Below the pieces are notes generated by a model. The model worked only from the letters and a program-made list of their open reading frames with translations. It searched no databases and had not been told where the DNA came from. Below, in pieces: positions 1,458-26,261 of a stretch of DNA of 64,000 bases. Numbering within the stretch: the stretch's first letter is position 1; every line of letters begins with the position of its first letter. The translations under genes and the position numbers were made by a program. Source of the DNA: Terriglobia bacterium (lineage in GTDB: Bacteria; Acidobacteriota; Polarisedimenticolia; Polarisedimenticolales; JAIQFR01); contig CAVVHE010000008.1 in the NCBI GenBank assembly GCA_963748015.1, positions 670,070 to 734,069 on the forward strand, read 5' to 3'.

Positions 1458-1632
1458 TGCCTCGATCATACCGCATTCGGAAGGCGAAACCCGCCCAACC
1501 GACCTTGAACCGGCGGCGGTCGTGGTGGTCTAATGCTCCTCGGGCCGCGACGGCTCGCCAGGCCGCCGGGACGACCGGCGTCGATGTCGGCCGGGAGTGA
1601 GGGATTCGCCGCCGGTTCCCGGGGAGCGACGC

Positions 1633-3243: not shown

Positions 3244-3285
3244 CGCGTATCGGCTCGCTCGTCGGACGGGAAAATAGGGGGCGCG

Positions 3286-5277
3286 GTGAGAAGGCTGGGC
3301 TTTAGGACGAGGCTGCTCCTCGGTTTCTTCCTGGTCGTCGGCATCATGGCCACGGTGGCCACCTGGGCGGGCTTCTCGTTCATCTCCCAGACGATGGTGA
3401 AGGAGGCGATGCTCCGCGTGGAGATGGATCTCGGCGCCGCCTGGTCCGCCTACGAGGCGGAGAGGAACCAGATCCAGATCGTCGTCGGCATGGCTTCCCA
3501 AAACGACACGCTGCGGGCCGCCCTTCGGCCCCCCCGGCGGCTCGAGGGCGTCGGTAGGGAGCTCGAGGCCTATCGCAAGAAGTACAGGCTCGATTTTCTG
3601 ACGCTGGTGGACGCCGAGGGCGTTGCAACCGCGCGGTCACGCCCCCCCCTCGCGGCGGGAGACAAGGTCTGGAGCGATCCGATCCTCGAACGCGCGCTGA
3701 AGGGGAAAGCCGCGAGCGGCACGGTCGTAATGCCCGGCTCGGCCCTCGAGCTCGAGGGCGAGGAGCTCGAACAACGCGCCTACATCCCCGTGATCTTCAC
3801 CGACAGAGCTGTGCCCACCGAGAGGATTGCGGAGGACCGGGGACTGGTCCTCGAGGCCGCCATGCCGATCGTGGGCTCGGGGGACCGAGTGATCGGGGCG
3901 CTCACGGGGGGAGTCCTGCTGAACCGCAAGTTCGCATTCGTGGACCGGATCCGTGACGTCGTGTTCGGAGACAAGACCTTCGAGGGGAAGCCGGTGGGGA
4001 CGGTGACCCTCTTTCTGTCGGACGTCCGGATCGCCACCAACGTGATGCTCGACCCGGGAACCCGCGCCATAGGGACCCGGGTCTCGCAGGCGGTTTACGA
4101 GACCGTGGTCAAGCGCGGCGAGCGTTTCGCCAATCGGGCCTTCGTCGTCAACGACTGGTACCTGTCGGCGTATGACCCGATTCGCGATCCGGACAACCGG
4201 GTGATCGGGATCCTCTACGTGGGCTTGCTCGAGAAGAAGTACATGGAGTTCAAGTCGAGCCTCGCCGCCCGGTACGTGGGGATCAGTTTCGGCGCGCTCG
4301 TGCTGTCGACGGTCGTCGCGTTGTACCTCGCCAGCGGCTTCCGGCGGCCGATCCACGGCCTTGTCCGAGCGACCCGGGAGCTCTCGAGCGGCAACCTCGC
4401 GGCGCGGGTGCGGCTCGGATGGGCGAGCCGCGAGACCGCCGAGCTCGGCGACGCCTTCAACTCGATGGCGGAGGCCCTGGAGAGGCAAACCAGCCAAGTG
4501 CAGGAAGCTTCGGAGGCCCTCCAGAAGGCGTACAGGGAAACCGAGGAGAAGAACCGCGCCTACCTCGAGATGCTCGGCTTCGTGACCCACGAGTTGAAAT
4601 CCCCACTGGCCTCCATCGTCTTCGCGATCGGCGCCCTGCGCGATCGCATCCTGGGTCCGGTCAACGACGCACAGGAGCAGATCCTCAGGGCGGCCTCGAA
4701 CAGCGCGGATTACCTCCGGGACACCATCGCGAACTACCTCAACCTCAGCCGGATCGAGGAAGGCGAGCTGAGGCTTCGCTGGTCGGTGGTCGCCATTCGC
4801 GACGAGATACTGGCACCCGTCCTGGACCGGCTATCCGAGCTCGCCGCCGAACGCGGCATGCGGATCGAGTGCGAGGTTCCGCCCGACGTCGCCGGCGCGT
4901 GCGACCCCAGCCTGATCACGTCCGTTTTCCAGAACCTCCTGTCCAACGCCGTGAAGTACGGCCGGGAGGGGGGGCGGATCCGGGTCACCGCGGGGAGCGA
5001 CGGGACTTCCGGTTTCGTGCGGTTCCATGTCTGGAACGAGGGGGAGGGGTTCCCGAGTGGCGAAGGCGAGAAGCTCTTCCGGAAGTTCTCGCGTCTGACC
5101 CACGGCGGCGACGACACGAAATCCGGCACGGGCCTCGGGCTGTTCGTATCCCGGGTGATCGTCGAAAAGCACGGCGGTCGGATCGAGGCCGAGTCGGCAC
5201 CCGGGCAGTGGGCCGATTTCTCATTCACCCTTCCGACGGCCGTTCCACGTCCACAGATTCCGGTCCCGTCCGAGTAG
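3286..5277 (+). CDS. Sensor histidine kinase (N-terminal TM, periplasmic Cache-like domain, HAMP, HisKA, HATPase_c)
   Basis: GTG start. Two TM segments flank a ~290-aa periplasmic region. HAMP-like linker. H-box FVTHELKSPLASI. N/G boxes (NLLSNAVKYG, GTGLGLFVSRVIVEKHGG). Confidence 0.9.
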   Translation: MRRLGFRTRLLLGFFLVVGIMATVATWAGFSFISQTMVKEAMLRVEMDLGAAWSAYEAERNQIQIVVGMASQNDTLRAALRPPRRLEGVGRELEAYRKKYRLDFLTLVDAEGVATARSRPPLAAGDKVWSDPILERALKGKAASGTVVMPGSALELEGEELEQRAYIPVIFTDRAVPTERIAEDRGLVLEAAMPIVGSGDRVIGALTGGVLLNRKFAFVDRIRDVVFGDKTFEGKPVGTVTLFLSDVRIATNVMLDPGTRAIGTRVSQAVYETVVKRGERFANRAFVVNDWYLSAYDPIRDPDNRVIGILYVGLLEKKYMEFKSSLAARYVGISFGALVLSTVVALYLASGFRRPIHGLVRATRELSSGNLAARVRLGWASRETAELGDAFNSMAEALERQTSQVQEASEALQKAYRETEEKNRAYLEMLGFVTHELKSPLASIVFAIGALRDRILGPVNDAQEQILRAASNSADYLRDTIANYLNLSRIEEGELRLRWSVVAIRDEILAPVLDRLSELAAERGMRIECEVPPDVAGACDPSLITSVFQNLLSNAVKYGREGGRIRVTAGSDGTSGFVRFHVWNEGEGFPSGEGEKLFRKFSRLTHGGDDTKSGTGLGLFVSRVIVEKHGGRIEAESAPGQWADFSFTLPTAVPRPQIPVPSE

Positions 5278-5283
5278 TCCGGG

Positions 5284-5340
5284 CTAGGAGCCGGTCCGAG
5301 TAATCCCGCGGCCTACGGGATTACTCGGACCGGCTCCTAG
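5284..5340. terminator. Perfect 25-bp-stem hairpin between convergent kinase and receiver genes (bidirectional terminator candidate)
   Basis: CTAGGAGCCGGTCCGAGTAATCCCG / 7-nt loop CGGCCTA / CGGGATTACTCGGACCGGCTCCTAG. It starts 7 nt after the kinase stop (5275-5277) and contains the receiver gene stop codon (5337-5339). There is no obvious T-tract. Confidence 0.55.
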
Positions 5341-5777
5341 CGCTCGGCCTCTGTGGTGCCGGCAGCGCCGGCCAGCATCGCCTCGATCCTCGCGAGGATC
5401 TCCGCCGGCCTGATCGGCTTCTCGACGAACGCATCGACGGGAAGGAGCGCGGTGCCGATCCGGTCGCTGAAGTTCAGGTGGGTCTTCGCCGTCACGCTGG
5501 TCAGCATGATGATCGGGACGTTCGCGTAGGCCGCGAACGGCGACTCCGGTCCGCTTGCTCGAAGCTGACTGAGGACCCGGAACCCCGCCACGAAATCCTC
5601 CATGATCACGTCGAGGATGATCAGGTCGGGCTCGACTTCGCGGATTCTCCGCAGCCCTTCGGCGGCGGAATGCGCCGAGTGGAACTCGTAGCCCCTGGCG
5701 TCGCAGACCAGCTTGAACACGTTGACGAGGTTCACGTCGTCGTCGATCATCAGCAGCTTCTTCTTGCCCGCGTCCAT
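5337..5777 (-). CDS. Stand-alone response regulator receiver domain (CheY-like)
   Basis: KKLLMIDDD...DLIILDVIM (acidic pocket and phospho-acceptor Asp)...MLTS...EKP. No output domain. Confidence 0.9.
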   Translation of the reverse strand: MDAGKKKLLMIDDDVNLVNVFKLVCDARGYEFHSAHSAAEGLRRIREVEPDLIILDVIMEDFVAGFRVLSQLRASGPESPFAAYANVPIIMLTSVTAKTHLNFSDRIGTALLPVDAFVEKPIRPAEILARIEAMLAGAAGTTEAER

Positions 5778-5799
5778 CAGAGTCCTCCAGGTGTTGTGC

Positions 5800-6207
5800 T
5801 CAACCCCCGATCACGACCTTGTCGCCGGCGATCCGGACGGGAACGGACTCGAGAGGTCTGGGCGGGAGGCCGGTGATCACGCGGCCGTCGGCGTCGTAGA
5901 CGCCGCCGTGGCAGGGGCAGTGATAGCGGCGGTCGGAGGGCTCCCAGCGGACCTCGCATCCCTGGTGGGTGCAGCGGAGCGAGCGGGCGCTGATGCCGCC
6001 GCCGGTTCGAACGATCTCGACCGGGATCTCCGCCCACACCATCCGGACGCGCTTCCCCTCCGGCACCTGCGCCAGCGGGACCTCGAGGGGCGGGGCTGTG
6101 GGGCCGCAGCCCGCGAGGCCGAGCGCGTGCGCGGCAGCGGCCAGTCCCGCGGTCCGTCCCAGGATTCCCAGCGCTTCTCGCCGCCCGCACTCGCCGCCGC
6201 CGGTCAC
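5800..6207 (-). CDS. Rieske [2Fe-2S] domain protein with Tat-like signal
   Basis: CTHQGC...CPCHGG Rieske motifs. RREALGILGRTAGLAAAAHA twin-arginine-like leader. GTG at 6207 is preceded by GGAGGAGG, so I prefer it to the longer TTG start at 6276. A 22-nt gap to the receiver gene suggests an operon. Confidence 0.85.
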   Translation of the reverse strand: MTGGGECGRREALGILGRTAGLAAAAHALGLAGCGPTAPPLEVPLAQVPEGKRVRMVWAEIPVEIVRTGGGISARSLRCTHQGCEVRWEPSDRRYHCPCHGGVYDADGRVITGLPPRPLESVPVRIAGDKVVIGG

Positions 6208-6326: not shown

Positions 6327-8699
6327 GTGGACGGGACCGAGCGGGACGGGCGGGGGGGCGTCGTCGAGCGGCGCCGGCTCGTCTGCCGCGGCGCCGTCCA
6401 GGGGGTCGGGTTCCGTCCTTCGGTTCACCGGCTCGCGACGGAGTTGGGGCTTGCCGGCTGGGTGCGCAACGGTCCGGAGGGCGCCGTCGTCGAGTTGGAG
6501 GGCCCCCGGGCGCTCGTCGAGACTTTCCTCGCGAGGTTTCCCCGCGAGCTGCCGCCGCTCGCGCGCCTCGAGTCTCTCGACGCCGAGGAGATCGCGCCCG
6601 AGGGGAGCCGGTCGTTCCGCGTCGAGGAGTCGGAGGCCGGGCCGCGAAGCGGGGCCCTCGTACCGCCCGACGCGGCGCTCTGCGCGGACTGCCGGCGCGA
6701 GATGGAGGATCCCTCCGACCGCCGCCACCGGTACCCCTTCACCACCTGCACGAACTGCGGGCCGCGCTTCTCGCTGTGCCTCTCGTTCCCGTACGACCGC
6801 GTGCGGACCTCGATGGCCCGCTTCCCGCTCTGCGCCGACTGCGCCCGCGAGTATCGCGACCCCGGCGACCGGCGCTTCCACGCGGAGCCGGTCTGCTGCC
6901 CAGCCTGCGGGCCGCAGCTGTCCCTCGTGGATGCCGAGGGGAAGGTCGAGGCTACCGGTAGCGAGGCGCTCGAGGCCGCGCGGGGGGCGCTCGCCCGCGG
7001 CGCGATCGTCGCCGTGAAGGGACTCGGCGGCTTCCAGCTCGCGTGCCGCGCGGATCTCGTGCCGTCGCTCAGGCTCCTGCGCGAGCGGAAGCGGCGCCCG
7101 ACCAAGCCGCTCGCGGTCATGGTCCGCGATCTCGAGGCGGCGAGGCGCCTGGTCGTGCTGTCGGAGGAGGACGATAGCCTGCTCGAGTCGCCCCGGTCGC
7201 CGATCCTGCTCGCGGCGCGGCGGAGCCCGTCTCCGCTCCCCGCGGACGTGGCGCCGGGAATCGACGATCTCGGCGTGATGCTCCCGACCACGCCGCTGCA
7301 CGTGGAGCTCTTCCGCGGAACCCCCTACGACGCGCTGGTCATGACCAGCGGAAACGCCGGCGACGAGCCGATCTGCCGCGGCAACCACGAGGCCGTCGGA
7401 CGGCTCGCGGGCATAGCGGACCACTTCCTGCTCCACGATCGCGACGTGGTCCGCCGCGTGGACGACTCGGTGGCTCGCGCGCTCCCGGGGGGCGCCGCCG
7501 TCATGGTGCGGAGGTCGCGCGGCTGGGTCCCCGAGCCCGTCCCGCTCGCCGAGCCCGCGCCGGTCCCGATCCTCGCCCTCGGCGGGCACCTCGCGGTGAC
7601 GGCCTGCCTCGCCTCCGGCGGGCAAGCCTTCCCGTCCCAGCACGTGGGCGATCTCGACAGCGAGCCGGCCCGGGCCTTCCTGGTGGAGGTCGCGTTAGGA
7701 CTCGAGGAGTTCCTCGAATCGCGCGCCGGGGCGGTCGCGGTGGATCTCCACCCCGACTACCCGAGCACCTGGATCGGGGAGGACCTCGCGGCGCGGCGGC
7801 GGGTGCCGCTGATCCGGATCCAGCACCACCTCGCCCACGCCGCGTCCGTCCTCGCCGAGCACGGGGTCTTCCCGAGGCCGGGCGAGCAGGCGGGGGCGAT
7901 CGTGCTCGACGGGACCGGGTGGGGACCGGACGGTACCGCCTGGGGAGGGGAGTGGATCCTCCTGGAAGGCGACCTGCGCTGGCGGCGGCAGGCGCACCTC
8001 GCGGAGATCCCGCTCGTCGGCGGCGAGAGCGCGGTCCGCGAGCCGTGGCGCGTCCTGGCCGCGGCCCTGGCCCGGGAAGGTGCTTCGAGCCTGCTACCCC
8101 GACTCCCCGTCGCGGACCTCGTCGCGCCGGAGCGATTGCTCGAGGCAGCGCGCCTCGCCGCCAACCCCGCCTGGCCGCTCGCCGCGGGGGCAGGGCGGCT
8201 CTTCGAGGCGGCGGGGGCCCTTCTCGGCCTCGCGGCCGAGAACGGTTGGGAGGGGGAGGCCGCGGCCCGGCTCGAGTCGCTCGCGGCGAGCGATGCCGGC
8301 GACGCGATGGCCTGGCCGGAGGTCGGGCTTCGCGATCTGCCGCGAGGGCCGGTCGTGCCCGGGCCCGCCCTGCTCGCCGCGGCGGCGCGGCGGGTCGCGG
8401 CGGGAGAAGACCCGGCCCGGGTCGCGTCGGGGTTTCATGCTACCTTCTGCAAGCTGGCCGCGGAGGCGGCGTCCCGCGTGTTTCCCGCGGGGACCGCGGT
8501 CATAGCGCTCGGCGGCGGGTGCCTCGTGAACCGGCTGCTCTCGAGGGGCCTCGCGGCCCGCCTCGAGGAAGCCGGCTTCGCCGTGAGGACGCCGCGCGCG
8601 CTTCCGCCCGGCGACGGGGGGCTCTCCCACGGCCAGGCGGTCCTCGCCGCCCTCTCGCTCGCGCGCGGGCGCGAGCCGGAGCTGAAAGGAGCGGTCTGA
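6327..8699 (+). CDS. hypF: [NiFe]-hydrogenase maturation carbamoyltransferase HypF
   Basis: Acylphosphatase-like N-terminus (VQGVGFRPSVHRLA). Two CxxC-x18-CxxC zinc-finger pairs (CADCRRE...CTNCGPRFS; CADCARE...CPACGPQ). YrdC-like and Kae1-like C-terminal parts. GTG start with GGGAGG upstream. Confidence 0.95.
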   Translation: MDGTERDGRGGVVERRRLVCRGAVQGVGFRPSVHRLATELGLAGWVRNGPEGAVVELEGPRALVETFLARFPRELPPLARLESLDAEEIAPEGSRSFRVEESEAGPRSGALVPPDAALCADCRREMEDPSDRRHRYPFTTCTNCGPRFSLCLSFPYDRVRTSMARFPLCADCAREYRDPGDRRFHAEPVCCPACGPQLSLVDAEGKVEATGSEALEAARGALARGAIVAVKGLGGFQLACRADLVPSLRLLRERKRRPTKPLAVMVRDLEAARRLVVLSEEDDSLLESPRSPILLAARRSPSPLPADVAPGIDDLGVMLPTTPLHVELFRGTPYDALVMTSGNAGDEPICRGNHEAVGRLAGIADHFLLHDRDVVRRVDDSVARALPGGAAVMVRRSRGWVPEPVPLAEPAPVPILALGGHLAVTACLASGGQAFPSQHVGDLDSEPARAFLVEVALGLEEFLESRAGAVAVDLHPDYPSTWIGEDLAARRRVPLIRIQHHLAHAASVLAEHGVFPRPGEQAGAIVLDGTGWGPDGTAWGGEWILLEGDLRWRRQAHLAEIPLVGGESAVREPWRVLAAALAREGASSLLPRLPVADLVAPERLLEAARLAANPAWPLAAGAGRLFEAAGALLGLAAENGWEGEAAARLESLAASDAGDAMAWPEVGLRDLPRGPVVPGPALLAAAARRVAAGEDPARVASGFHATFCKLAAEAASRVFPAGTAVIALGGGCLVNRLLSRGLAARLEEAGFAVRTPRALPPGDGGLSHGQAVLAALSLARGREPELKGAV

Positions 8700-8929
8700 T
8701 GTGCCTGGCGATACCGATGGAGCTGATCGAGCGGGGAGAGTACGACGGCGAGGTGGAGCTGAACGGCGTGCGCCGCAAGGTCTCGCTGATGCTCCTCCCC
8801 GAGGCCGAGGTGGGGGAGTACCTCCTGATCCACGCCGGTTACGCCATCGGGAAGCTCGACGCCGAGGAGGCCAAGGAGACGATCGCCCTCCTCGAGGAGC
8901 TGGCCCGCGCGTCGGGGGATGCGCCGTGA
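8699..8929 (+). CDS. hypC: Hydrogenase maturation chaperone HypC
   Basis: MCLAIPMELIE... (N-terminal Cys2 signature), 76 aa. The ATG shares one nt with the hypF stop. Confidence 0.9.
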   Translation: MCLAIPMELIERGEYDGEVELNGVRRKVSLMLLPEAEVGEYLLIHAGYAIGKLDAEEAKETIALLEELARASGDAP

Positions 8930-10035
8930 CGGCCGACGCGCCCTTCTTCGATCCGAAGACGGTCGCGACCCTCGTTGCCCGCATTCGCGAGACCGCCGAG
9001 GCGCTCACCCGGCGGGTCGTTCTCATGGAGGTCTGCGGCACGCATACCCACGCGATCGCGGCCGCGGGCCTGCGCCGCCTCCTGCCCCCCGGCGTCCGGT
9101 TGATCTCGGGGCCGGGGTGCCCGGTGTGCGTCACGCCGGTGGACTACATGGACCGCGCCGAGGCGCTCTCGGCGCTTCCGGACACGATCGTGACCACCTT
9201 CGGCGACCTCATGCGGGTCCCGTCGAGCCGCGGGAGCCTCGAGCGGGCGAGGGCGAGAGGCGCGAGGATCGAGATCGTCTATTCGCCGCGCGACGCCCTC
9301 GACATCGCGCGCGCGGAGCCGAAGTCCCGCGTGATCTTCCTGGCGGTCGGGTTCGAGACGACGGCCCCCACCATCGTCGCGGCGGTCGAGGAGGCGGAGC
9401 GGCTCGGCATCCCGAACTTCCTGATCCTGCCCGGCAACAAGATCGTTCCCCCGCCGCTCCGGGCGCTCGCGAGCGACCCCGAGGTGCAGGTCAACGGCGT
9501 GCTCCTCCCCGGGCACGTCTCGGTCGTGACCGGCGCCTTGGAGTTCGAGTTCCTCGCGAAGGAATTCGGCGTCCCGTCCGCCGTCGTCGGGTTCACCCCC
9601 GCCGACGTGCTGCGCGGCGTGCTGGAGCTGGCGGAACAGCTTCGGGATGGGCGGGCCGAGGTCGCGAACCTCTACGGCCGCGTCGTGACGGCGGAGGGGA
9701 ACCTCCACGCGCGCGCGCTCCTCGACAAGTTCTTCGAGCCGGCCGACACGGCGTGGCGCGGCCTCGGGCGCATCCCGCTCTCGGGCTTGGCGCTTCGCCC
9801 CGCGTGGGCGCACCGCGACGCGTCGCGGATCGCCGTCGAGCTGCCGGAGCCGGTGGAGCCCGCGGGGTGCCGGTGCGGCGAGGTGCTGAAGGGCACGATC
9901 GATCCGCCGGAATGCCCGCTCTTCGCGGGCGACTGCACGCCGGAGACCCCCGTCGGCGCGTGCATGGTCTCGAGCGAGGGGACCTGCGCCGCCTGGTACC
10001 GGCACGACCGCTGGGCCGCCGGGGCGCGTTCTTGA
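8926..10035 (+). CDS. hypD: Hydrogenase maturation protein HypD
   Basis: GTG start overlaps the hypC stop (GTGA). MEVCGTHTHAI, GPGCPVCVTP, C-terminal Cys cluster (CxxxxxxC...C). Confidence 0.95.
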   Translation: MTADAPFFDPKTVATLVARIRETAEALTRRVVLMEVCGTHTHAIAAAGLRRLLPPGVRLISGPGCPVCVTPVDYMDRAEALSALPDTIVTTFGDLMRVPSSRGSLERARARGARIEIVYSPRDALDIARAEPKSRVIFLAVGFETTAPTIVAAVEEAERLGIPNFLILPGNKIVPPPLRALASDPEVQVNGVLLPGHVSVVTGALEFEFLAKEFGVPSAVVGFTPADVLRGVLELAEQLRDGRAEVANLYGRVVTAEGNLHARALLDKFFEPADTAWRGLGRIPLSGLALRPAWAHRDASRIAVELPEPVEPAGCRCGEVLKGTIDPPECPLFAGDCTPETPVGACMVSSEGTCAAWYRHDRWAAGARS

Positions 10036-11051
10036 GCGGCCCCGAGAAGATCCTCCTGGCCCACGGGTCGGGAGGACGGCTGACCCACGCCCTCGTGCGG
10101 GAGACCTTCCTTCCGGCGTTCGACAATCCGTTCCTCGCGACCCTCTCCGACAGTGCGATCCTGCCCGAGCTGCCGCCGGGGCGCCCCGCCCTGACCACCG
10201 ACGCGTTCGTCGTGGACCCGCCGGTCTTTCCGGGGGGCGACCTCGGCTACCTCTCGATCTGCGGCACGGTCAACGACCTCGCGGTCGCGGGAGCGCGGCC
10301 GCTGTGGCTCACCTTCGCGGTGATCCTCGAGGAGGGTCTCTCGGGCGAGCTGCTCGAGACGTTCGCGCAAGGCGCGGCTCGCGCCGCGGAAGAGGCGGGG
10401 GTCCGGGTCGTGGCCGGCGACACGAAGGTCGTCCCGCAGGGGAAGGGCGACCGCATGTACGCGGTGACGGCGGGTCTCGGCGTGGTTCCCCCGGGCCGGG
10501 AGCTTGGCGACCACCGGATCCGGCCGGGGGACGCCTTGCTGGTCTCCGGAACGCTCGGCGACCACGGCGCGACCGTGATGGCGTGCCGCCATGGGATGGC
10601 GGGGCCGGGCCTCAAGTCCGACTGCGCTCCCATCGCATCTCTCGTCGAGACGCTGCTCGCATCGGGCGCGGACGTCCACGCGATGCACGACCCCACCCGC
10701 GGCGGCGCGGCCGTCACCTGCAACGAGGTGGCCGGGCGGGCCGGCGTGCGCATCGTCCTCGACGAGGCGCGCCTGCCCGTGCGCGGCGAGGTCTCCGCGA
10801 TCTCCGAGATGCTCGGGCTCGACCCGCTCTACCTCGCCTCCGAGGGCCGCGTCCTCGCCTGGGTCGCCGGCCCCGACGCCGATCGCGCGCTCGACGCCCT
10901 CCGTTCCCACCCGCTCGGCCTCGGCGCCGTGCGGATCGGCGAGGTCACCGCCGCCCCGCCCGGGGCCGTCCCCGTCCTCCTCCGCACCCGGATCGGCGGC
11001 GAGCGCCCCGTCGACCTCCTCTCCGGCATGGACCTACCGCGCATCTGCTGA
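10032..11051 (+). CDS. hypE: Hydrogenase maturation protein HypE (carbamoyl dehydratase)
   Basis: TTG start overlaps the hypD stop (TTGA). AIR-synthase-like fold motifs (AHGSGG, GDTKV). Canonical C-terminal PRIC. Confidence 0.95.
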   Translation: MSGPEKILLAHGSGGRLTHALVRETFLPAFDNPFLATLSDSAILPELPPGRPALTTDAFVVDPPVFPGGDLGYLSICGTVNDLAVAGARPLWLTFAVILEEGLSGELLETFAQGAARAAEEAGVRVVAGDTKVVPQGKGDRMYAVTAGLGVVPPGRELGDHRIRPGDALLVSGTLGDHGATVMACRHGMAGPGLKSDCAPIASLVETLLASGADVHAMHDPTRGGAAVTCNEVAGRAGVRIVLDEARLPVRGEVSAISEMLGLDPLYLASEGRVLAWVAGPDADRALDALRSHPLGLGAVRIGEVTAAPPGAVPVLLRTRIGGERPVDLLSGMDLPRIC

Positions 11052-11080
11052 GCCGTCGCGCTCGCGCCGCCCTCGACCCC

Positions 11081-11337
11081 TTCTCGGTCGGGTCCTCGTC
11101 TCGTCCCCTGCCGGATGCGTTCTCGCCAACCCGAAAAAGGGTTGTCTCCGAACGCATCCGGCAGGGGACGAGACGTCCGGCTTCGTTCGAGTTGGTTCCG
11201 GATCCGGACGGAGACACCCCCACGGTCGCAGTACCACGCGCGAGGACGAGGCGGCATGGGTTCGGAGACGGCCCTTTTCCGGGCCGGCGAGAACCCATGC
11301 CGCCTCGTCCTCGCGGCTCGAGTGTCCCGGGTCTCGG
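11081..11337. repeat. Composite (BIME/REPIN-like) of two long covarying hairpin repeats in opposite orientation with a small central palindrome
   Basis: Hairpin 11097-11175 (core TCGCC-AACCC-GAAAAA-GGGTT-GTCTCC inside a ~26-bp outer stem). Palindrome TCCGGATCCGGA. Hairpin 11239-11325 (same core on the other strand, different outer stem). The whole unit recurs at 13594-13857. Confidence 0.85.
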
Positions 11338-11349
11338 TTCGGCTATGCG

Positions 11350-12882
11350 TCAGTGCGACGGCGCGGACGGGAGAGGGGGGAGCGGTTCGCGGGTGTAGCG
11401 GCCGGAGGCGAGGTCGAGGAGCGTGCGGTAGGCGACGCGGGCCTCGGATTCGAGGAGGGCGCCGCTCAGCGTGTCGGGGCGGTCGGACGGGAGGTGCAGG
11501 TGGTCGTAGGCGTGCGTCGCGGCGAAGTAGAGGGTGGGGACACCGGCCTCGCGGAACGGGGTCGCGTCGGCGCCGCCGCCGCCCCAGGTCTCGTCGGTCA
11601 TCGCGACACCAAGGACGCGGGCGCTCTCTCGCGCGAGCTTCCAGAGCGCGGGCGCGTCCTTGCCTCCGCCCGCCTGCACCGCGTCGCCGAAGCCGATGCA
11701 GTCGAGGTTCACCATCGCGACGGTGCGGTCGAGCGGGAAGGGGGGCGAGGCGGCGTACTTGCGGGCGCCGTCGAGGGAGTGCTCCTCGGAGGAGAAGAGG
11801 ACGAACACGACGGTGCGCGGAAGGCGCGGGCCCCGTGCGAGCGCTTCGGCCAGGGCAACGACCGCGGCCGAGCCCGAGGCGTTGTCGTTCGCGCCCGGGT
11901 AGACGACGCGGCCGGCCTGGCTGCCGACGTGGTCGAGATGCGCGCCGACCACGACGAACTCCTCGGCGGCCCCGGAATTCTCGCCGCGAAGGACCCCGAC
12001 GACGTTCATCGCGGGTGCCTCTCTCCGGTACTCTGCCCGGATGTCGAGCCGGGCGGTCGCGCGAAGGGGGAGGGAACCGGGGCGCTTCGCCGTCTCGATC
12101 CCGGACTCGAGGTCCTCGAGCGTGCGCCCGGTGCCGGCGAGCAGGTCCTCCGCGACGGCGGTTCCCACGTGAACGACCGGGAAGAGATCGTCTCTCTCGC
12201 CCTTTCCGTCCAGCAGGCTGCCGATCGGCTTCTGCGCGGGGGCCGGCTTCGGCGCGGACACGAGGAGCAGGCCGACGGCCCCGTGATCCGCGGCGGCTCG
12301 GGCCTTGGCGCGCGGGAGATCCGCCCCGGCCCAGTCCGCCCCGTCGATCTTCCACGACGGGGCGCCCTTGAACACGAGCGCGATCTTTCCCCGAACGTCG
12401 GTGTCGGAGTAGTCGTCGTAGCCACGACCGGGAATCGAGAGCCCCCAGCCTGCGAAGACCACGGGCGCGGCGAGGGTGGCCGAGCCGGTCAGGACGCGGC
12501 AGGCGTAGTCCTCGCCGAGGCGGTACTCGCGGACGCCCGACGCGTTTTCGACCGAGAGGTCGCAGCGCTCGATCCGGCTCGACTCGACGGTGAGATGCTG
12601 GAAGTAGCCGCCGTCCCCGCCGGGCTCGAGGCCCGCCGCGGCGAAGCGGTCGGCGACGTGCCGCGCCGCGCGGTCGTAACCCTCCGTGCCGGGCAGGCGG
12701 CCGTCCATCTCCGGAGAGGCGAGGATCCCGACCGTGCGGAGCAGCTCGGCGCGCGAGAGCGACGGGTCGGCAGCCGGCGCGCTCACGGGTTGCCGGCCGC
12801 CGCAGGCGGAAGCGGCCATCAGCGCGGCGACGGCGGCGACACGCACGACGCGACGGGGGATGCGGGGGCACGGTGAATTCAC
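11350..12882 (-). CDS. M28 family metallopeptidase with PA domain, probable lipoprotein
   Basis: Signal plus lipobox (AASACGG). GAHLDHVG, GANDNASG, SSEEHSLDG, NLDCIG zinc-ligand blocks typical of M28 aminopeptidases. Confidence 0.85.
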   Translation of the reverse strand: MNSPCPRIPRRVVRVAAVAALMAASACGGRQPVSAPAADPSLSRAELLRTVGILASPEMDGRLPGTEGYDRAARHVADRFAAAGLEPGGDGGYFQHLTVESSRIERCDLSVENASGVREYRLGEDYACRVLTGSATLAAPVVFAGWGLSIPGRGYDDYSDTDVRGKIALVFKGAPSWKIDGADWAGADLPRAKARAAADHGAVGLLLVSAPKPAPAQKPIGSLLDGKGERDDLFPVVHVGTAVAEDLLAGTGRTLEDLESGIETAKRPGSLPLRATARLDIRAEYRREAPAMNVVGVLRGENSGAAEEFVVVGAHLDHVGSQAGRVVYPGANDNASGSAAVVALAEALARGPRLPRTVVFVLFSSEEHSLDGARKYAASPPFPLDRTVAMVNLDCIGFGDAVQAGGGKDAPALWKLARESARVLGVAMTDETWGGGGADATPFREAGVPTLYFAATHAYDHLHLPSDRPDTLSGALLESEARVAYRTLLDLASGRYTREPLPPLPSAPSH

Positions 12883-12974
12883 GAGGGGATAGGATGCCCC
12901 GGGGAGCGCTGCTTCCGCAAGCGGCTTGCCTGGCTGGCGCCGATGTGGTTCTTTAGGGGGGCGGAGGAGAGACG

Positions 12975-13478
12975 ATGCCGATCTACGAGTTCTACTGTCG
13001 CGACTGCCACACGGTGTTCAGCTTCCTGTCGCGCGGCGTGAACCCGGGGAAGCGGCCCGCCTGTCCCCGCTGCGGGCTCGCCAATCTGCCGCGCCGCCCT
13101 TCGGCGTTCGCGATCTCGAAGGGGCGCAAGGAGGCCGAGGACGGCGGCGAGGAGGGCCTGCCCGACTTCGACGAGGCCAAGCTCGAGCGCGCCATGTCGT
13201 CCATGGCGGGCGAGATGGAAGGCCTCGACGAGAGCGACCCGCGCCAGGCCGCCCGCCTTGCGCGGAAGCTCTACGAGGCGGCCGGGATCCCGGTCGGGGG
13301 CGGTCTCGAAGAGGCGATCCGGCGCATGGAGGCGGGGGAAGACCCCGAGGCCGTCGAGGCCGAGATGGGCGACGTCCTCGACGCCGACCCCTTCGCGGCC
13401 ACCCCCGAGAAACGCCTCGCGCGCCTCCGCCGCAAGATGCTCCCCGCCGCCGTGGACACGACCCTCTACGAGCTTTGA
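12975..13478 (+). CDS. FmdB-family zinc-ribbon protein
   Basis: MPIYEFYCRDCHTVF...CPRCG (CxxC-x~24-CxxC at the N-terminus), acidic C-terminal tail. Confidence 0.75.
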   Translation: MPIYEFYCRDCHTVFSFLSRGVNPGKRPACPRCGLANLPRRPSAFAISKGRKEAEDGGEEGLPDFDEAKLERAMSSMAGEMEGLDESDPRQAARLARKLYEAAGIPVGGGLEEAIRRMEAGEDPEAVEAEMGDVLDADPFAATPEKRLARLRRKMLPAAVDTTLYEL

Positions 13479-13506
13479 CCTCCGTCCGCAACCGCGTGCC
13501 GGCGCT

Positions 13507-13857
13507 TTCTCGGCCGGGCCCTCGTCTCGTCCCCCGGCCGGATGCGTTCTCGCCAACCCGAAAAAGGGATGTCTCCGAACGCGTTCCGCCGATTTCTCGG
13601 CCAGGTCCTCGTCTCGTCCCACGGCCGGATGCGTTCTCGCCAACCCGAAAAAGGGTTGTCTCCGAACGCATCCGGCCGGGGGACGAGACGTGCGCTTCGT
13701 TCGGGCTGAGTTCCGGATCATCCGGATGGAGACACCCCACGCGGTTGCTGCCACCACACGCGAGGACGAGCCTGCATGGGTTCGTAGACGGCCCTTTTTC
13801 GGGTCGGCGAGAACCCATGCAGGCTCGTCCTCGCGGCCCGAGTGTCCGGGGTACGAC
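13507..13857. repeat. Second copy of the hairpin composite, with an ~87-bp tandem duplication of the left arm plus core
   Basis: Truncated unit 13523-13592, full hairpin 13610-13690, palindrome CCGGATCATCCGG, hairpin 13759-13845. Collinear with 11081-11337, with scattered substitutions that are compensatory in the stems. Confidence 0.85.
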
Positions 13858-13892
13858 GCCGAGACCGAGGACGGCAGGGGGCACGAGGGGAT

Positions 13893-14486
13893 CTAGCGGG
13901 TGCCGGCGGCGGCGGCGGCGCGGCCGGCCTCGAAGGCGTCGAGGTTGACCTTGCGCACCTTGGCCGGAACCAGGGCCCCGATCGCTTCCCGCCAGGCGTC
14001 CTCGCCGAAGTCGAGGTGCCGCGAGAGGGCGCCGATCATCACGACGTTGACCACGCGCACGTTCCCGAGATGCGTCGCGATCTCGAGAGCGGGGACCAGG
14101 TCGAGGCGCGGAAACGTGGCCCGGAGCTTCCCGTCGAGGTCCTCGGGCCACACGGACTGTCCCGTGGTGACGGTGACGGGGCGGATCTCCTGCTCGTTCA
14201 CCACGGCGAAGCCGCCCGGCTTGAGCTCGTGGGAGAACCGCAGCGCCTCGACCTTCTCGAACGACACGAGGAAGTCCGAGGTGCCCGTGGCGATCAGCGG
14301 GGAGGGAACGCGGTCGCCGATCCGGACCTGGCCGACGACGCTCCCGCCGCGCTGGGCCATCCCGTGGACCTCGCTCTTCTTGACGTCCTTCCCGCGGAGT
14401 AGGGCCACCTTGCAGAGGATCTCGCCCGCGAGGAGGATCCCCTGGCCGCCGACGCCCACCAGGGACACGTTGAGGATCGCGCTCAT
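13893..14486 (-). CDS. iorB: Indolepyruvate:ferredoxin oxidoreductase beta subunit (2-oxoacid:Fd oxidoreductase gamma-type)
   Basis: MSAILNVSLVGVGGQGILLAGEIL...VHGMAQRGGSV. ~197 aa. 4-nt overlap with the upstream alpha subunit. Confidence 0.85.
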   Translation of the reverse strand: MSAILNVSLVGVGGQGILLAGEILCKVALLRGKDVKKSEVHGMAQRGGSVVGQVRIGDRVPSPLIATGTSDFLVSFEKVEALRFSHELKPGGFAVVNEQEIRPVTVTTGQSVWPEDLDGKLRATFPRLDLVPALEIATHLGNVRVVNVVMIGALSRHLDFGEDAWREAIGALVPAKVRKVNLDAFEAGRAAAAAGTR

Positions 14487-16267
14487 GACGGCACCTTCTC
14501 GCTGACCGCCTCGAGGCGGCAGACCTGCACGCACATGCCGCAGCCCACGCAGAGCACGTCGTTGATCCGGACCTTGTGCTTCCCGGTCGCCTCGGCGACC
14601 GCGTCGGACGTCTCCATCGCGGGACAGCCGAGGCGGAGGCACGCGCCGCATCCCGAGCACTTGTCCGGCTCGATCTCGTACCGCTCCTCGATCTGGATCC
14701 GCGCCCCCAGGACGCAGGCCCGGCGGCTGACCACGACGGACGGCTCGGGGGTGTCCAGCTCCTCCTTGAGGGCCTGATAGGTCGCCTCGAGGTCGTACGG
14801 GTCCACGACGCGGACCCGCTTGACACCGAGGCCGTGCGCGACGTCCTCGATCTTCGTCTCGGGGGCCTCGGCGCCCATCAGCGTCTTGCCGGTTCCGGGA
14901 TGCTGCTGGTGGCCGGTCATCGCCGTCGTGCGGTTGTCGAGCACCACCACCGTCCCGTGGCTGTTGTTGTAGACCATGTTCAGGAGGCCGGTGATGCCGG
15001 AATGGAAGAAGGTGCTGTCGCCGATCACCGAGGCGATCCGGCCGCGCTGGCCGGCCTTCTCCATCCCGTGCGCGTTCGTCACGCTCGCCCCCATGCAGAC
15101 GATCGTGTCCATCGCGTCCAGCGGGGCGAAGGCGCCGAGCGAGTAGCAGCCGATGTCGCCGGTCACGATCGCGCGCAAACGGTGCAATGCGTAGAACACG
15201 CCGCGATGCGAGCAGCCCGGGCAGAGGACCGGCGGCCGCGCGGGGAGGCCGGACATCGGCGCCGGCAGGGGGGAGGGCTCGCGCCCCGCGACCTCGGCCG
15301 CGAGGTCGGCCAGCCGGTCCGGGTTGAGCTCGCCGATACGGAGCGAGTGCCGGGGCTTCTCGACGCGGATGCCGAGACCGACGATCTGCTCCTCGAGGTA
15401 GGCGTCCCCTTCCTCGACGACGTAGAGCTTCTCGACCGAGGCGGCGAACTCGCGCAGCAGGCGCTCGGGGAGCGGATGGGTCATGCCGAGCTTCAGGATC
15501 GAAGCGCCCGGAAAGGCCTCCCTCGCGTAGCCGTACCCGATGCCCGAGGTCACGATCCCGACCTTGTCGCCGCGCTCGATCTTCTGGAAGGCGCTGCGCT
15601 CCGCGTACTCCGCCAGCCGGTGGAGCTTCTCCTCGAGGCGGACCCTCATCACCTTCGCGTACATCGGCACGGGAATGGTCTTCGAGATGTCCTTCGTGTA
15701 ATTGCGGTCGCCGCGGGGCTTCCGCTCGAACGCGCCGAGGTCCACGACGCCGGAGGAGTGCGAGACGCGGGTCGTCGTCCGGACGAGCACCGGGACCTCG
15801 AACTCCTCGGAGAGATCGAGGGCGGTCCGGACCATGTCGTAGCAGTCCTGGCTGTCGGACGGCTCGAACATCGGCATCTTGCCGAACCGGGCGACGTGCC
15901 GGTTGTCCTGCTCGTTCTGCGAGCTGTGCATGCCGGGGTCGTCGGCCGTCACGACGACCATCCCGCCGTTCGCGCCGATGTAGGCGAAGGTCATGAGCGG
16001 ATCCATCGCGACGTTGAGCCCGACGTGCTTCATCGCGGTGAGGCACCGGGCGCCGGCGAACGAGGCCCCGATGACCACTTCCATCCCGACCTTCTCGTTG
16101 ACCGCCCACTCGCAGTAGATCTCCTTGAACTTCGCGACGTTCTCGAGGATCTCGGTGCTCGGCGTTCCGGGGTAGGCGGAGGCGACCTCGACGCCGCCGG
16201 CGAATGCCGCATGGGCGATGGCCTCGTTGCCGGAGAGGACCTTTCGGCTGGTGGTGGTGTCCGACAT
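14483..16267 (-). CDS. iorA: Indolepyruvate:ferredoxin oxidoreductase alpha subunit
   Basis: Start at MSDTTTSRKVLSGNEAIAHAA. TPP-binding region (GDSTFFHSG). Two C-terminal ferredoxin-type clusters (CSGCGACLRLGCP, CVGCGMCVQVC). The longer ORF to 16405 is not supported. Confidence 0.9.
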   Translation of the reverse strand: MSDTTTSRKVLSGNEAIAHAAFAGGVEVASAYPGTPSTEILENVAKFKEIYCEWAVNEKVGMEVVIGASFAGARCLTAMKHVGLNVAMDPLMTFAYIGANGGMVVVTADDPGMHSSQNEQDNRHVARFGKMPMFEPSDSQDCYDMVRTALDLSEEFEVPVLVRTTTRVSHSSGVVDLGAFERKPRGDRNYTKDISKTIPVPMYAKVMRVRLEEKLHRLAEYAERSAFQKIERGDKVGIVTSGIGYGYAREAFPGASILKLGMTHPLPERLLREFAASVEKLYVVEEGDAYLEEQIVGLGIRVEKPRHSLRIGELNPDRLADLAAEVAGREPSPLPAPMSGLPARPPVLCPGCSHRGVFYALHRLRAIVTGDIGCYSLGAFAPLDAMDTIVCMGASVTNAHGMEKAGQRGRIASVIGDSTFFHSGITGLLNMVYNNSHGTVVVLDNRTTAMTGHQQHPGTGKTLMGAEAPETKIEDVAHGLGVKRVRVVDPYDLEATYQALKEELDTPEPSVVVSRRACVLGARIQIEERYEIEPDKCSGCGACLRLGCPAMETSDAVAEATGKHKVRINDVLCVGCGMCVQVCRLEAVSEKVPS

Positions 16268-16400
16268 GGGCGTTCCTTCATCGGTGGGCCCGGGTGGCCC
16301 CGGGCGGAGTGAGGCCCATCGTAGCAGAGGGTCGGGGGAAGAAACAGGGCGCCGGCGGGCCGCGCGGACGCGGGAAGGGGAGGAGGTGGCGGGAGTGAAG

Positions 16401-16443
16401 AACAAAGAAAACCCCGGGCGCCGGACCGATCCGGCACCCGGGG
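16401..16443 (-). terminator. Rho-independent terminator
   Basis: On the minus strand: CCCCGGGTGCCGGA-TCGG-TCCGGCGCCCGGGG followed by TTTTCTTTGTT, 20 nt downstream of the stop of 16464..16913. Confidence 0.8.
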
Positions 16444-16463
16444 CTCGAAACCGAGGGACCGGA

Positions 16464-16913
16464 CTAGAGCGGTTCGGAGCGGGACTTGGTGAGGCCCTTC
16501 TTCTTGCCCTTGCCCTTGGTCAGCGGGTCCGACGCGGCCGCCGTCGGATCGGAGGCCGCCCGGTTGCCGAGCTCCTGGCCGAAGCTGTTGAGGAAGGCGT
16601 CGACCTGCGAGGGCGTGAAGATCGCCTGGGGATTCTGGGTGGTAACCTTGAGTCCCAGCGCCGACGCGATGGACGCCACCGACCCTTCGGTCAGCGTGTT
16701 GTCGAACCGCAGCTCGGGCAGCGCATATCCCGCGGCGCGGAGCGAGCCCGCCGCAGCGGCAGGATCGGCGGCCTCCAGGTGGTGAACTTTCGCGACGGCC
16801 ACCAGGAACTGCCCGGTCGTCACGTTGTCGGTTGCGGCGAAGGCGGCGGCTCCGGCCGTGAGCACCACCGCCGCGACCAGGATCGAAACGCAGAGTCTCG
16901 GAATTCGATTCAT
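16464..16913 (-). CDS. Small secreted protein of unknown function with Lys-rich C-terminus
   Basis: ATG at 16913 preceded by GGAGATGGAG. Signal peptide MNRIPRLCVSILVAAVVLTAGAAAFA. Tail GKGKKKGLTK. Followed by a strong terminator. Confidence 0.6.
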   Translation of the reverse strand: MNRIPRLCVSILVAAVVLTAGAAAFAATDNVTTGQFLVAVAKVHHLEAADPAAAAGSLRAAGYALPELRFDNTLTEGSVASIASALGLKVTTQNPQAIFTPSQVDAFLNSFGQELGNRAASDPTAAASDPLTKGKGKKKGLTKSRSEPL

Positions 16914-17116
16914 CGCTAGCTCCATCTCCTTCTGGCGAAAACTCGATAGAAAACAGCGCAACGGCCGATCGCCAAGTCGGGAAGATCGCCACACGCTCCC
17001 AGCGGTTCCCCCGAGCCCGGAAATCGGACCGCGCTTCTATTTACGGTCTCCCCGGGATTTCTGCAAGGGCGAGGCGCCGACAAGAGAGCCAGGCCGCGGT
17101 CGGGGCGTCCGCAGGG

Positions 17117-18319
17117 TCACTCCGCCCGGAGAGCCTCCACGGGGTCGAGGGCCGCGGCCCGGCGGGCGGGGAGGACGCCGCTCAGGAGGCCGACCGTGAG
17201 GCTGACGAGGAGCGCCGCGGCCACGAACCGGAAGGGGGTCTCGACGGGGAGACCGGGAAGGGTGCGGCGCAGGACGGCGGCGAGCCCCAGCCCCACCGCC
17301 ACCCCGAGCACACCCCCCGACAGCGAAAGGACGGAGGCCTCGAAGAGGAACATGGCGAGGATCTGGCCGGGCGCGGCGCCGAGGGCCTTCGCGAGGCCGA
17401 TCTCGGCGGTTCGCTCGTTCACCGAGATCCACATCATGGTCAGGATCCCGATGGCACCCACGACGAGCGAGATCGCCCCGATCCCGGCCACGGCGAACCC
17501 GACGATTCCTATGACACGCCCGAGGACGTCGAGCATCTCCGTCTGCGTGACGATGGTGAAGTCCTCCTCGCCGCCGTGCCGGGCCATCAAGGTCTTGCGG
17601 ATCCCCGCGACGACGAAGTCGGCGTCGAGGCGGTTCGAGAAAAGGACGTCGATCTCCACCAGGTCGTCGCGGTTGAAGAGCCGCTGGGCCGAGGCGACCG
17701 GGACGTAGGCGGTGTCGTCGAGATCGAAGCTCAGGAAACGTCCCTTCGGCTCCATGATGCCGATCACCACGAAGCGCCGCCCCCCGATTCGCACGTGCTC
17801 GCCGAGCGCGTTCGCCTCGCCGAAGAGCTCGCGCTTGAGCTTGGGCCCGAGCACCGCGAGGGGGGCCGCCCGCCAGGGGTCTCCGGCCGGCAGGAAGCGG
17901 CCCTGCCGGATCCGGAACTTCCAGACGTCCGGAACGTCCGGCGTGACGCCGTAGACGAACACGCTCCGCCCCCGCTCGCCGGCCTCGACGCGCGCCATCC
18001 CCATCGCGAGGGCGACGTACTTCTCGGCCCCGGGCACGCGCAGGATCTCTCTCGCGTCCCCGAGGGTCAGCTTCCGCACGGTGCCCACGACCGAGCCCGA
18101 GATCCCGGTGGTCTTGATCTTGCCCGGCTGGATCGCGAGCGTGTTCGTCCCGAACTGGGTGAACTCGGCCATGATGTACGCGCGCGCCCCCTCGCCGATG
18201 GACGTCAGCAGGATCACCGAGGCGACGCCGATCAGGATCCCGAGCATCGTGAGGCCCGACCGGAGCCGGTGGGCGACGATCGCTCCCCAGGCGAGACGGA
18301 GGAGGTCCTTCGAAGTCAT
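17117..18319 (-). CDS. ABC transporter permease, MacB/FtsX type
   Basis: N-terminal TM, ~220-aa periplasmic MacB_PCD-like region, and 3 C-terminal TMs (FtsX). Start ATG overlaps the upstream permease stop (ATGA). Confidence 0.85.
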   Translation of the reverse strand: MTSKDLLRLAWGAIVAHRLRSGLTMLGILIGVASVILLTSIGEGARAYIMAEFTQFGTNTLAIQPGKIKTTGISGSVVGTVRKLTLGDAREILRVPGAEKYVALAMGMARVEAGERGRSVFVYGVTPDVPDVWKFRIRQGRFLPAGDPWRAAPLAVLGPKLKRELFGEANALGEHVRIGGRRFVVIGIMEPKGRFLSFDLDDTAYVPVASAQRLFNRDDLVEIDVLFSNRLDADFVVAGIRKTLMARHGGEEDFTIVTQTEMLDVLGRVIGIVGFAVAGIGAISLVVGAIGILTMMWISVNERTAEIGLAKALGAAPGQILAMFLFEASVLSLSGGVLGVAVGLGLAAVLRRTLPGLPVETPFRFVAAALLVSLTVGLLSGVLPARRAAALDPVEALRAE

Positions 18320-19521: not shown

Positions 19522-19530
19522 GGGCGGCTC

Positions 19531-23086: not shown

Positions 23087-23177
23087 GGCGGGAATGGTAC
23101 AAGAAAAACAGGCGCGAGCCGCCGGGCGCCGGGGAGCGCCGGACGTCCTTCGGGGGCCGCGTCCCGGCCGCCGCGCG

Positions 23178-23756: not shown

Positions 23757-23791
23757 TACGGCGAATGACGAGCCGGAGTTTCGGCCCGCTT

Positions 23792-23860: not shown

Positions 23861-23870
23861 ACGCAGGTCG

Positions 23871-26123: not shown

Positions 26124-26163
26124 TGCGCCGGCGTCCCTCGTCGACCTTCCCGTAACGCCGGCC

Positions 26164-26240: not shown

Positions 26241-26261
26241 GACCACCACGTTGTTTGCGGG

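Follow-up and report, generated by a model that had tools for sequence, protein, structure and literature searches.

A family of long two-tier palindromic repeats in intergenic regions of a Polarisedimenticolales genome (Acidobacteriota)

Hairpin copies and their sites

A family of long hairpin repeats is described here from 64,000 nucleotides (nt) of an acidobacterial genome (contig CAVVHE010000008.1 of assembly GCA_963748015.1, positions 670,070 to 734,069; Terriglobia bacterium, order Polarisedimenticolales in GTDB), a stretch referred to as the window throughout. The host belongs to an uncultured, poorly studied lineage of high G+C content (about 71% in the window). Genes were called from third-position G+C (55, with a few extra open reading frames, ORFs) and annotated with Pfam. 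Seven copies of the hairpin, c1 to c7, occur at four sites (Table 1), all of them intergenic and 5-50 nt from a stop codon. Convergent gene pairs enclose the copies at three of the four sites, in keeping with a preliminary description of this DNA that had placed them mostly between such pairs.

The copies are tied together by a shared core. The window was searched for TCGCC-N5-GRAAAA-N5-GTCTYC with up to two mismatches, and dinucleotide-preserving shuffles served as chance control. Eight matches were obtained, comprising the seven hairpin copies (zero or one mismatch) and a two-mismatch match at 60964 that is taken to be chance; the shuffles gave an expectation of 0.08 core matches and a maximum of 1. 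All seven copies previously described were thus found again. A scan of metagenomes with a family-specific pattern retrieved 18 contigs, one of which (L102) is a chance match, and the resulting 17 loci contribute about 25 further copies.

Each unit is a two-tier hairpin in which the outer stem leads, through an asymmetric internal loop (TCGCC on the 5' side, GTCTNC on the 3' side), into a 5-bp inner stem with a six-base apical loop. The inner stem of the window copies has the form NNCCC/GGGNN, is closed by an RRAAAA loop and varies among copies as had been stated (AACCC/GGGTT, GGCCC/GGGCC, GCCCC/GGGGC), with one mismatch each in c3 (GGGAT) and c5 (GACCC/GGGCC). The outer stem has 25-27 pairs in six window copies and 13 in the truncated c3. 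When the metagenome copies are included, units measure 77-95 nt and complete copies hold 25-32 outer and 5 inner pairs. Folded as single-stranded DNA, the window units reach -38 to -46 kcal/mol with z-scores of -7.5 to -15.8 (c1: -42.1 kcal/mol, z = -13.0).

Two subtypes are distinguished by the strand of the core, which is plus in type A (c1, c3, c4 and the variant c6) and minus in type B (c2, c5 and the variant c7). A conserved leader of 16 nt, TTCTCGGYCGGGYCCT (before c1, at 11081-11096, TTCTCGGTCGGGTCCT), precedes type A units, and a trailer, GGCTTCGTTCG, which c1 shares, follows them. Type B units are followed by GCGTGGT, and their flanks prolong the pairing imperfectly, in c2 out to about 11204-11343. 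In each of two composites, opposed hairpins of the two types flank a small palindrome, as had been described. The intergenic region of composite 1 folds as RNA at -192.9 kcal/mol (z = -10.5). Composites 1 and 2 are homologous from end to end, their 60-nt palindrome-bearing spacer included (86% alignment column identity), and it follows that the doublet itself was copied. Composite 2 shares its left member with a tandem array of 87-nt period, which begins with a half-unit remnant and of which c3 and c4 form two periods (13484-13570 and 13571-13657, 87% identical). In arrays the right arm is short in all units except the last, so that the full complement of the left arm is present only there. 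The inverted doublets and tandem clusters bear out the earlier comparison of the layout with bacterial interspersed mosaic elements (BIMEs) and REPINs.

Table 1. Positions, structure and surroundings of the repeat units and related elements. Window coordinates unless a locus is named; bit scores are from covariance model R1.
Feature	Position	Strand	Core start	Structure	Surroundings
Composite 1	11081-11332			type A unit, spacer, inverted type B unit	between hypE (10032-11051, +) and M28 peptidase gene (11350-12786, -)
c1, type A	11097-11175	+	11123+	26-bp perfect outer stem; core 11123-11149 = TCGCC AACCC GAAAAA GGGTT GTCTCC; 96.5 bits	3' of hypE, last gene of hypFCDE
Spacer palindrome, composite 1	11196-11208			TTCCGGATCCGGA	
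c2, type B	11239-11315	-	11290-	25-bp perfect outer stem, CGCGAGGACGAGGCGGCATGGGTTC/complement; core 11264-11290; inner stem GGCCC/GGGCC; 94.4 bits	3' of M28 peptidase gene
3' half-unit remnant	13479-13505	+		CCTCC GTCCGC AACCGCGTGCCGGCGC	directly after stop of Zn-ribbon gene (12975-13478, +); same remnant, same place in relative L097
c3, type A, first full array unit	13523-13592	+	13550+	core 13550-13576; short diverged right arm, 13 pairs; 62.5 bits	3' of Zn-ribbon gene
Composite 2	13593-13852				
c4, type A, last array unit and left member of composite 2	13608-13692	+	13637+	27 pairs; core 13637-13663; 95.4 bits	3' of Zn-ribbon gene
Spacer palindrome, composite 2	13711-13726			TTCCGGATCATCCGGA	
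c5, type B, right member of composite 2	13759-13835	-	13810-	25-bp stem; core 13784-13810, GTCTAC variant; 89.2 bits	3' of IOR beta/POR gene (indolepyruvate ferredoxin oxidoreductase beta subunit; 13893-14486, -), 48-58 nt from stop
c6, single unit	23785-23867	+	23813+	distinct outer stem (GGCTCGGACGTGTCC...); core 23813-23839; 89.8 bits	between two minus-strand genes, PCD (pterin-4a-carbinolamine dehydratase; 23871-24209) and RsbW-like ATPase (23178-23642)
c7, single type-B-like unit	26161-26243	-	26215-	core 26189-26215; inner stem GCCCC/GGGGC; GTCTTC variant; 92 bits	between convergent phosphodiesterase gene (24489-26123, +) and unknown gene (26262-27887, -)
Acidobacteriaceae 45-nt element, L022	3612-3656				
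Acidobacteriaceae 45-nt element, L027	about 215-260	-			
Acidobacteriaceae 45-nt element, L068	1587-1631				

Stem covariation, core conservation and the DNA or RNA question

Pairing of the stems was assessed in an alignment (A3) of 27 distinct copies from the window and the metagenomes, anchored solely on the core and with a structure of 26+5 pairs imposed. Standard pairs occupy 85.4% of the cells, which are not independent events in that the copies fall into subfamilies, as against 68% in column shuffles and 28-46% when the 3' partners are slid by 1-3 columns. Changes on both sides are seen in 24 of the 31 stem pairs, and the covariation score is 0.465 against 0.173 for the control. The compensatory stem changes that had been noted are confirmed by these numbers. 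In a DNA palindrome, however, they are no proof of selection on a folded molecule, since founder effects of subfamilies and correction of one arm by the other give the same pattern.

The covariance model built from A3 (R1), run on the window without filters, returned the seven copies only as family members, at 62-96 bits compared with 41-47 on the opposite strand; it also picked up an unrelated perfect 26-bp hairpin at 5280-5344. As proposed earlier, the unpaired core is both conserved and specific to one strand, its invariance in the metagenome copies being partly by construction because the search pattern fixed the core letters. Decayed copies are rare and amount to half-unit remnants and one degenerate copy. 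The latter (L100, 53-114; 25.5 bits; core replaced by TCGGC GGCCC GAAAA GCGCC GCGAC) lies immediately upstream of an intact copy.

Constancy of the core with variable stems could also arise if the element worked mainly as RNA, and this we consider a less likely alternative. The repeat would then be a modular element of the 3' untranslated region whose long stem terminates or stabilises the transcript and whose internal and A-rich loops form the site for an RNA-binding protein or RNase, DNA duplication being only the means of spread; a precedent is offered by RNase III sites of the phage T7 type, which have an asymmetric loop. The position of all window copies shortly after a stop codon fits such a role, as do the strand specificity of the core (about 90 versus 45 bits) and the low number of decayed copies, which suggests selection in place. 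Among 16 informative independent cases, the core is sense to the nearest upstream gene in about 12 and antisense in about 4 (c6, L100, L110, L112), and in both composites it is sense for the nearer gene. This sense bias hints at an RNA-level role for the core.

Orientation is not fixed, though. The core of c6 is antisense to the sole transcript able to read into it, and the two units of L110 and the copy of L100 are likewise antisense to the only or nearest gene able to transcribe them. Some related copies stand upstream of genes or operons (nuoA, an extracytoplasmic function (ECF) sigma factor, dus). The rule that every copy lies just downstream of a gene end, asserted in the preliminary description, therefore holds for the window and not strictly for the whole family. 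The stems, 95% Watson-Crick in complete copies, provide a further test, since RNA with the sequence of the core strand could tolerate G·T as a wobble, and A·C would be the wobble of the other strand: the counts are 25 and 28 overall and 3 and 10 in complete copies, so that neither strand bears a wobble signature and the core strand is not enriched in G·U. In 18 of 25 copies, folding is slightly better for the strand complementary to the core. Taken together, Watson-Crick stems, unfixed orientation and upstream copies speak against an element that acts strictly as sense-strand RNA and are consistent with both strands being under constraint. This test of RNA-only selection is not decisive, since a bidirectional terminator would be Watson-Crick only as well; convergent genes need the hairpin between them to fold in either transcript, and an RNA role may thus be compatible with the data. 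On single-stranded DNA versus RNA, the data lean to DNA.

Intrinsic termination was examined as an identity in its own right and rejected. In a terminator scan of 8000-27900 no family hairpin has a T-run, type A units continuing with GGCTTCGTTCG and type B units with GCGTGGT, and the sole match inside a family copy takes the TTTTT apical loop of c5 as its tail. The lack of a U-tract stands against the RNA reading all the more as the genome has at least one canonical U-tract terminator (16446-16409). This one, on the minus strand at 16409-16446, is the only convincing canonical terminator in the scanned region and is unrelated to the family. It has a 17-bp stem with TTTTCTTTGTTCT behind it and closely follows an unannotated 153-aa ORF (16464-16925); the organism can accordingly use U-tract terminators.

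Unique long hairpins are found between other convergent pairs of the window (5280-5344, 41724-41963, 56652-56694), which lends the RNA reading some support by making 3' hairpins the norm; that they fill the same niche as the family is in line with the DNA-repeat reading too. The hairpin at 5280-5344 (GCTAGGAGCCGGTCCGAGTAATCCCG CGGCCTA ...) has a perfect 26-bp stem and a 7-nt loop and lies between convergent sensor-kinase and response-regulator genes. It lacks the family core, is single-copy in the window and is free of G·U, from which we conclude that long G·U-free gene-end hairpins are general in this genome. The 240-nt nested palindrome at 41724-41963, between convergent amidase and ABC-3 permease genes, has 93% complementary arms (41759-41798/41881-41920) as well as an inner hairpin (41836-41886) and folds as RNA at -191.8 kcal/mol. 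The two genes are 21 nt apart in relative L117, and the palindrome is therefore a lineage-specific hairpin insertion of a different sequence family.

Distribution among relatives, gain and turnover

In relatives of about 90% protein identity the same sites are occupied by copies, but the number of units and their inner stems differ. Locus L097 contains a half unit and two units, one of which has GGCCC as its inner stem instead of the AACCC seen in the window; L105 opens with a complete unit at the place of the truncated c3; and L071 and L111 carry composite 1 with mirrored insertions in both arms. Tandem arrays recur elsewhere (three units of 100-nt period in L106, two units in L110, and L097), the head-to-tail periods ranging over 85-100 nt. 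A copy lies within about 200 nt of a contig end in 11 of the 17 family-bearing metagenome loci, and a short-read contig with the same peptidase and Zn-ribbon genes (L096) breaks at repeats at both ends; assembly breaks at copies are the usual signature of a dispersed repeat. Taxonomic labels vary: the closest named relative (P0130) is labelled 'Acidobacteriia bacterium', and L071, a 2-kb contig of a metagenome-assembled genome, is labelled Rectinemataceae.

More distant syntenic relatives (L116, L117/L118, L119; IOR-alpha 83-85% identical, gene order conserved) are free of the family. No copy was detected by R1 with filters off in their 58 kb, where about 6 would be expected at the density of the window. 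The sites are correspondingly short. The POR/Zn-ribbon junction measures 8-20 nt in these relatives as compared to 414 nt in the window, and the PCD/ATPase intergenic region 116 nt without hairpin in L117 as compared to 228 nt with c6. The hypE and Zn-ribbon genes are adjacent in L117 and L119 (19-20 nt apart) and are separated in the window by the peptidase gene and composite 1. From absence together with empty sites it follows that gain and amplification of the family postdate the divergence from the 83-85% relatives; the gain is recent and reshuffling is still under way. The comparison also reveals insertion of the M28 peptidase gene with its promoter region (11350-12974; versus L117 12384-13926 and L119) between hypE and the Zn-ribbon gene; composite 1 borders the inserted gene at its 3' end.

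Immobile ordinary terminators that have converged, or have been homogenised by gene conversion, would account for the family without any movement. Copies do occupy the same positions as the unique terminator-like hairpins at other genes, and orthologous copies persist in the relatives of about 90% identity. The explanation fails to cover the conservation of leader, trailer and spacer outside the hairpin and the homology of 250-nt doublets throughout, the existence of tandem arrays, the complete absence of the family from syntenic relatives whose genes abut, and the breaking of assemblies at copies. It is already disfavoured, and hardly any weight is left to it.

A 10-nt motif, CTCGTC(C/T)(T/C)CG, bears on how units may have been built. 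It lies 5' of the core in type A units, with its complement 3', and 3' of the core in type B units, with its complement 5'; in L114 and L110a a minimal unit with a 14-bp stem is bracketed by the motif in direct repetition. Five of its six window occurrences fall within type B arms, and the motif is therefore seen as a part of the element and not as a common target. By a speculative scheme, a minimal unit with direct-repeat flanks could have grown into the longer perfect palindrome through copying of one flank onto the other strand, with the side copied leading to type A or type B.

The same flanking repeats invite comparison with a conventional miniature inverted-repeat transposable element (MITE), moved by cut-and-paste, with the arms as terminal inverted repeats, a DDE transposase and target-site duplication. 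The short-stem units of L114 and L110a are directly flanked by an 8-nt direct repeat, TCGTCCTC (with a near-repeat in L104), and presence or absence between lineages fits insertion. Yet the repeat is identical at different sites and mostly appears as its complement on one side (types A and B), thus suggesting an element part instead of a duplicated target, a point to which its concentration in type B arms of the window adds. Other copies lack a consistent duplication. The conserved letters are internal (apical and internal loop) and not terminal, fixed-period tandem arrays are atypical, and no transposase was found among the called genes of the window and ten genes of related contigs. We regard a MITE as very unlikely.

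Beyond close relatives, a scan of a genome collection with a loose core pattern gave at least 95 loci, nearly all of which are chance single matches. Among the matches listed, those passing a stem-complementarity filter were L071 (the composite 1 orthologue) and three Acidobacteriaceae loci. Viral contigs yielded no match, and plasmids none to composite 1 or to the Acidobacteriaceae element. The three loci, from three Acidobacteriaceae species, share an identical 45-nt element, GAGATCCC TCGCC CCGCTGAAAAACGCGG GTCTTC GGGATGACGC. It has a 5-bp outer stem (ATCCC/GGGAT), TCGCC, a 4-bp inner stem, an A-rich loop and GTCTTC, which is the layout of the window family with short stems. Its loci were selected by the core letters, so that the stems alone are independent evidence and the R1 scores of 22-27 bits are not; it has no Rfam match.

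The window itself, scanned whole, gave no Rfam match at gathering thresholds, which is a further point against the RNA reading, and a permissive scan of 11000-13900 gave only sub-threshold generic miRNA-hairpin matches. A CRISPR array was rejected as the identity of the repeats because the stretches between cores are themselves repeated (87-nt period, 87% identical; 100-nt period in L106) and no cas genes are present in the window. An integron attC site, defined by RYYYAAC ... GTTRRRY boxes, was rejected on the reversed polarity of the arms (GTTC ... GAAC beside the core), the housekeeping neighbours in convergent pairs and the lack of an integrase in the window.

Other repeats and compositional features of the window are noted for completeness. 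Its longest inverted repeat (1282-1433/1654-1805; 152 nt, 76% complementary) represents the 5' parts of divergent paralogous NAD-dependent epimerase/dehydratase genes (3-1469, -; 1690-3243, +), and two tandem paralogous MacB/FtsX-type permease genes (17117-19521) account for direct repeats with 1199-nt spacing. The G+C fraction is 0.66-0.67 at the left end (1-6000) and 0.62 at the right end (62000-64000), the rest of the window lying at 0.69-0.75. An AT-richer intergenic stretch of 402 nt (62153-62554), which precedes an alginate-export-like porin gene, falls within the right end.

Proposed origin and comparison with known repeat families

Based on the evidence assembled here, the family is understood as a lineage-specific set of palindromic DNA repeats resembling BIMEs and their constituent repetitive extragenic palindromes (REPs), multiplied in 3' intergenic regions of the genome, with the core as a protein recognition site. 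As a whole, this account strikes us as the probable one, on balance; the narrower claim, that a REP-like DNA palindrome is proliferating, can be made with considerable confidence. Its forms of occurrence are singles, inverted A/B doublets copied as units of about 250 nt, and head-to-tail arrays. The unit would fold as a hairpin of single-stranded DNA, for example on the lagging-strand template, and a protein encoded elsewhere in the genome would recognise three features at once, namely the TCGCC/GTCTNC internal loop, the short inner stem and the A-rich loop. It may copy or move the unit, the best precedent by analogy being a Y1/HUH nuclease of the RAYT (REP-associated tyrosine transposase) or TnpA type. 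The long outer stem would need only to pair and could thus drift while staying perfect. Copies may persist at gene ends for the reason that insertion there is harmless, and a strong G+C-rich hairpin in this position could double as terminator or 3' stabiliser for one or both of the converging genes.

Several observations weigh against this proposal, including departures from known REPs that are set out with the comparison below. The proposed enzyme is pure inference. No Y1_Tnp or other transposase was detected by Pfam among all called window genes (for Y1_Tnp, even with E values up to 1 admitted for the unannotated ORFs), in agreement with the earlier report that no RAYT is present in the window, and none, Y1/HUH genes included, was detected by Pfam among ten genes of related contigs. 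No pair of empty and filled sites gave exact insertion ends or a target duplication; the exact ends were not obtained because gene 3' ends have diverged. The sense bias of the cores, in about 12 of 16 informative copies and in both composites, has been mentioned. A stem restricted to Watson-Crick pairs is needed also by a bidirectional RNA terminator, and G·U is likewise missing from the unrelated hairpin at 5280-5344. The rarity of decayed copies fits purifying selection in place as well as recent spread.

A bolder extension of the REP-like proposal, unlikely in our estimate, sees in the asymmetric internal loop a tag that would set a third class of palindromic repeats apart from the GTAG and CGTC REPs; this tag would be common to distant Acidobacteriota-like lineages and read by an enzyme other than a classical RAYT. 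The 45-nt Acidobacteriaceae element (L022, L027, L068) provides a hint in this direction. If the core works both as single-stranded DNA and as RNA, the element would couple its own spread to the formation of transcript ends.

Whatever protein reads the core, the family offers experimental and genomic access that is of more general interest. Its conserved letters are internal, which makes the recognition site easy to define and mutate, and the two tiers separate a module that must pair from one that must have a particular sequence. Filled and empty orthologous sites in sequenced relatives make the gain datable and the spread traceable in metagenomes. The repeats fragment short-read assemblies of the lineage, and a covariance model can flag them. 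REP-type repeats are known mainly from Proteobacteria, and identification of the core-reading protein would show whether RAYT-like enzymes or other drivers expand such repeats outside that group.

Among known families of similar size, ERIC/IRU, Correia/NEMIS and the SMAG repeats of Stenotrophomonas are 70-150 nt hairpin-forming intergenic repeats that are co-transcribed with their neighbours and can affect mRNA ends; ERIC and Correia have terminal inverted repeats and target duplications. The present family has no sequence relationship to them, and target duplications are not consistently seen in it. The CGTC-tagged REPs (Neisseria dRS3, Rickettsia RPE-4/6) are alike in that no dedicated transposase is known for them, in their occurrence mostly as head-to-head dimers downstream of genes, and in that a CGTC-containing motif, CTCGTC(C/T)(T/C)CG, recurs in the family arms. 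Their definition comprises an unpaired tag, an 8-9 bp stem, a 4-5 nt loop and a CCA tail (Di Nocera et al. 2013, PMC3733652); the CGTC of our family resides solely within paired arms (CGTCTCG..., CTCGTCCTCG) of a two-tier hairpin.

The subterminal imperfect palindromes of IS200/IS605 elements (IS608, ISDra2) supply a parallel for the internal loop. Their TnpA recognises single-stranded DNA hairpins (background of PMC6006769) by irregularities, namely an extrahelical base and the loop, and not by the stem, as is proposed here for the core. The ends of those elements lie on the same strand and flank genes, whereas the units described here carry no gene, stand inverted in doublets and are far longer, and no cleavage site or guide sequence could be identified in them. 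Acidobacteria-specific TIRYT genes have been described (PMC3733652).

In structure, classical REPs are units of 20-40 nt with stems of 5-13 bp (PMC3733652, Table 1), as compared with 79-87 nt and stems of 20-27 bp plus 5 bp here, and the early remark that the present units are far longer is fully supported, the stems being two to three times the classical length. The GTAG REPs are marked by an unpaired GT[AG]G at the 5' foot of the hairpin (PMC6006769, PMC3733652), which was not found in the flanks of 30 copies: the type A leader ends in ...GGYCCT before the stem, and the GTGG that is 3' of type B units on the core strand (CCAC 5' on the other) has the wrong polarity for a REP tag. The conserved letters of the family are in the internal and apical loops instead of at the foot. 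An 11-base likeness of the type A outer stem (11110-11120, 11152-11163; TGCCGGATGCG...CGCATCCGGCA) to the E. coli REP TGCCGGATGCGGCGTGAACGCCTTATCCGGCCTAC, a 35-mer that is present in several copies in each of 5,426 E. coli genomes, is probably coincidence, since the stems of other subfamilies differ. In behaviour, there exist clear analogies to REP, BIME and REPIN repeats of Proteobacteria, which are likewise multi-copy extragenic palindromes of lineage-specific distribution that form clusters and inverted heterodimers of two subtypes (Y and Z in E. coli BIMEs, A and B here), lie downstream of ORFs, mostly of convergent or co-directional genes, and derive the polarity of the unit from its asymmetry (doublets, clusters and downstream placement: PMC3733652, PMC6006769). 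The preliminary description had left room for a match to an already described family; none emerged from Rfam or from the GTAG and CGTC definitions. The family is previously uncatalogued, REP/BIME-like in its behaviour while belonging to neither the GTAG nor the CGTC superfamily.

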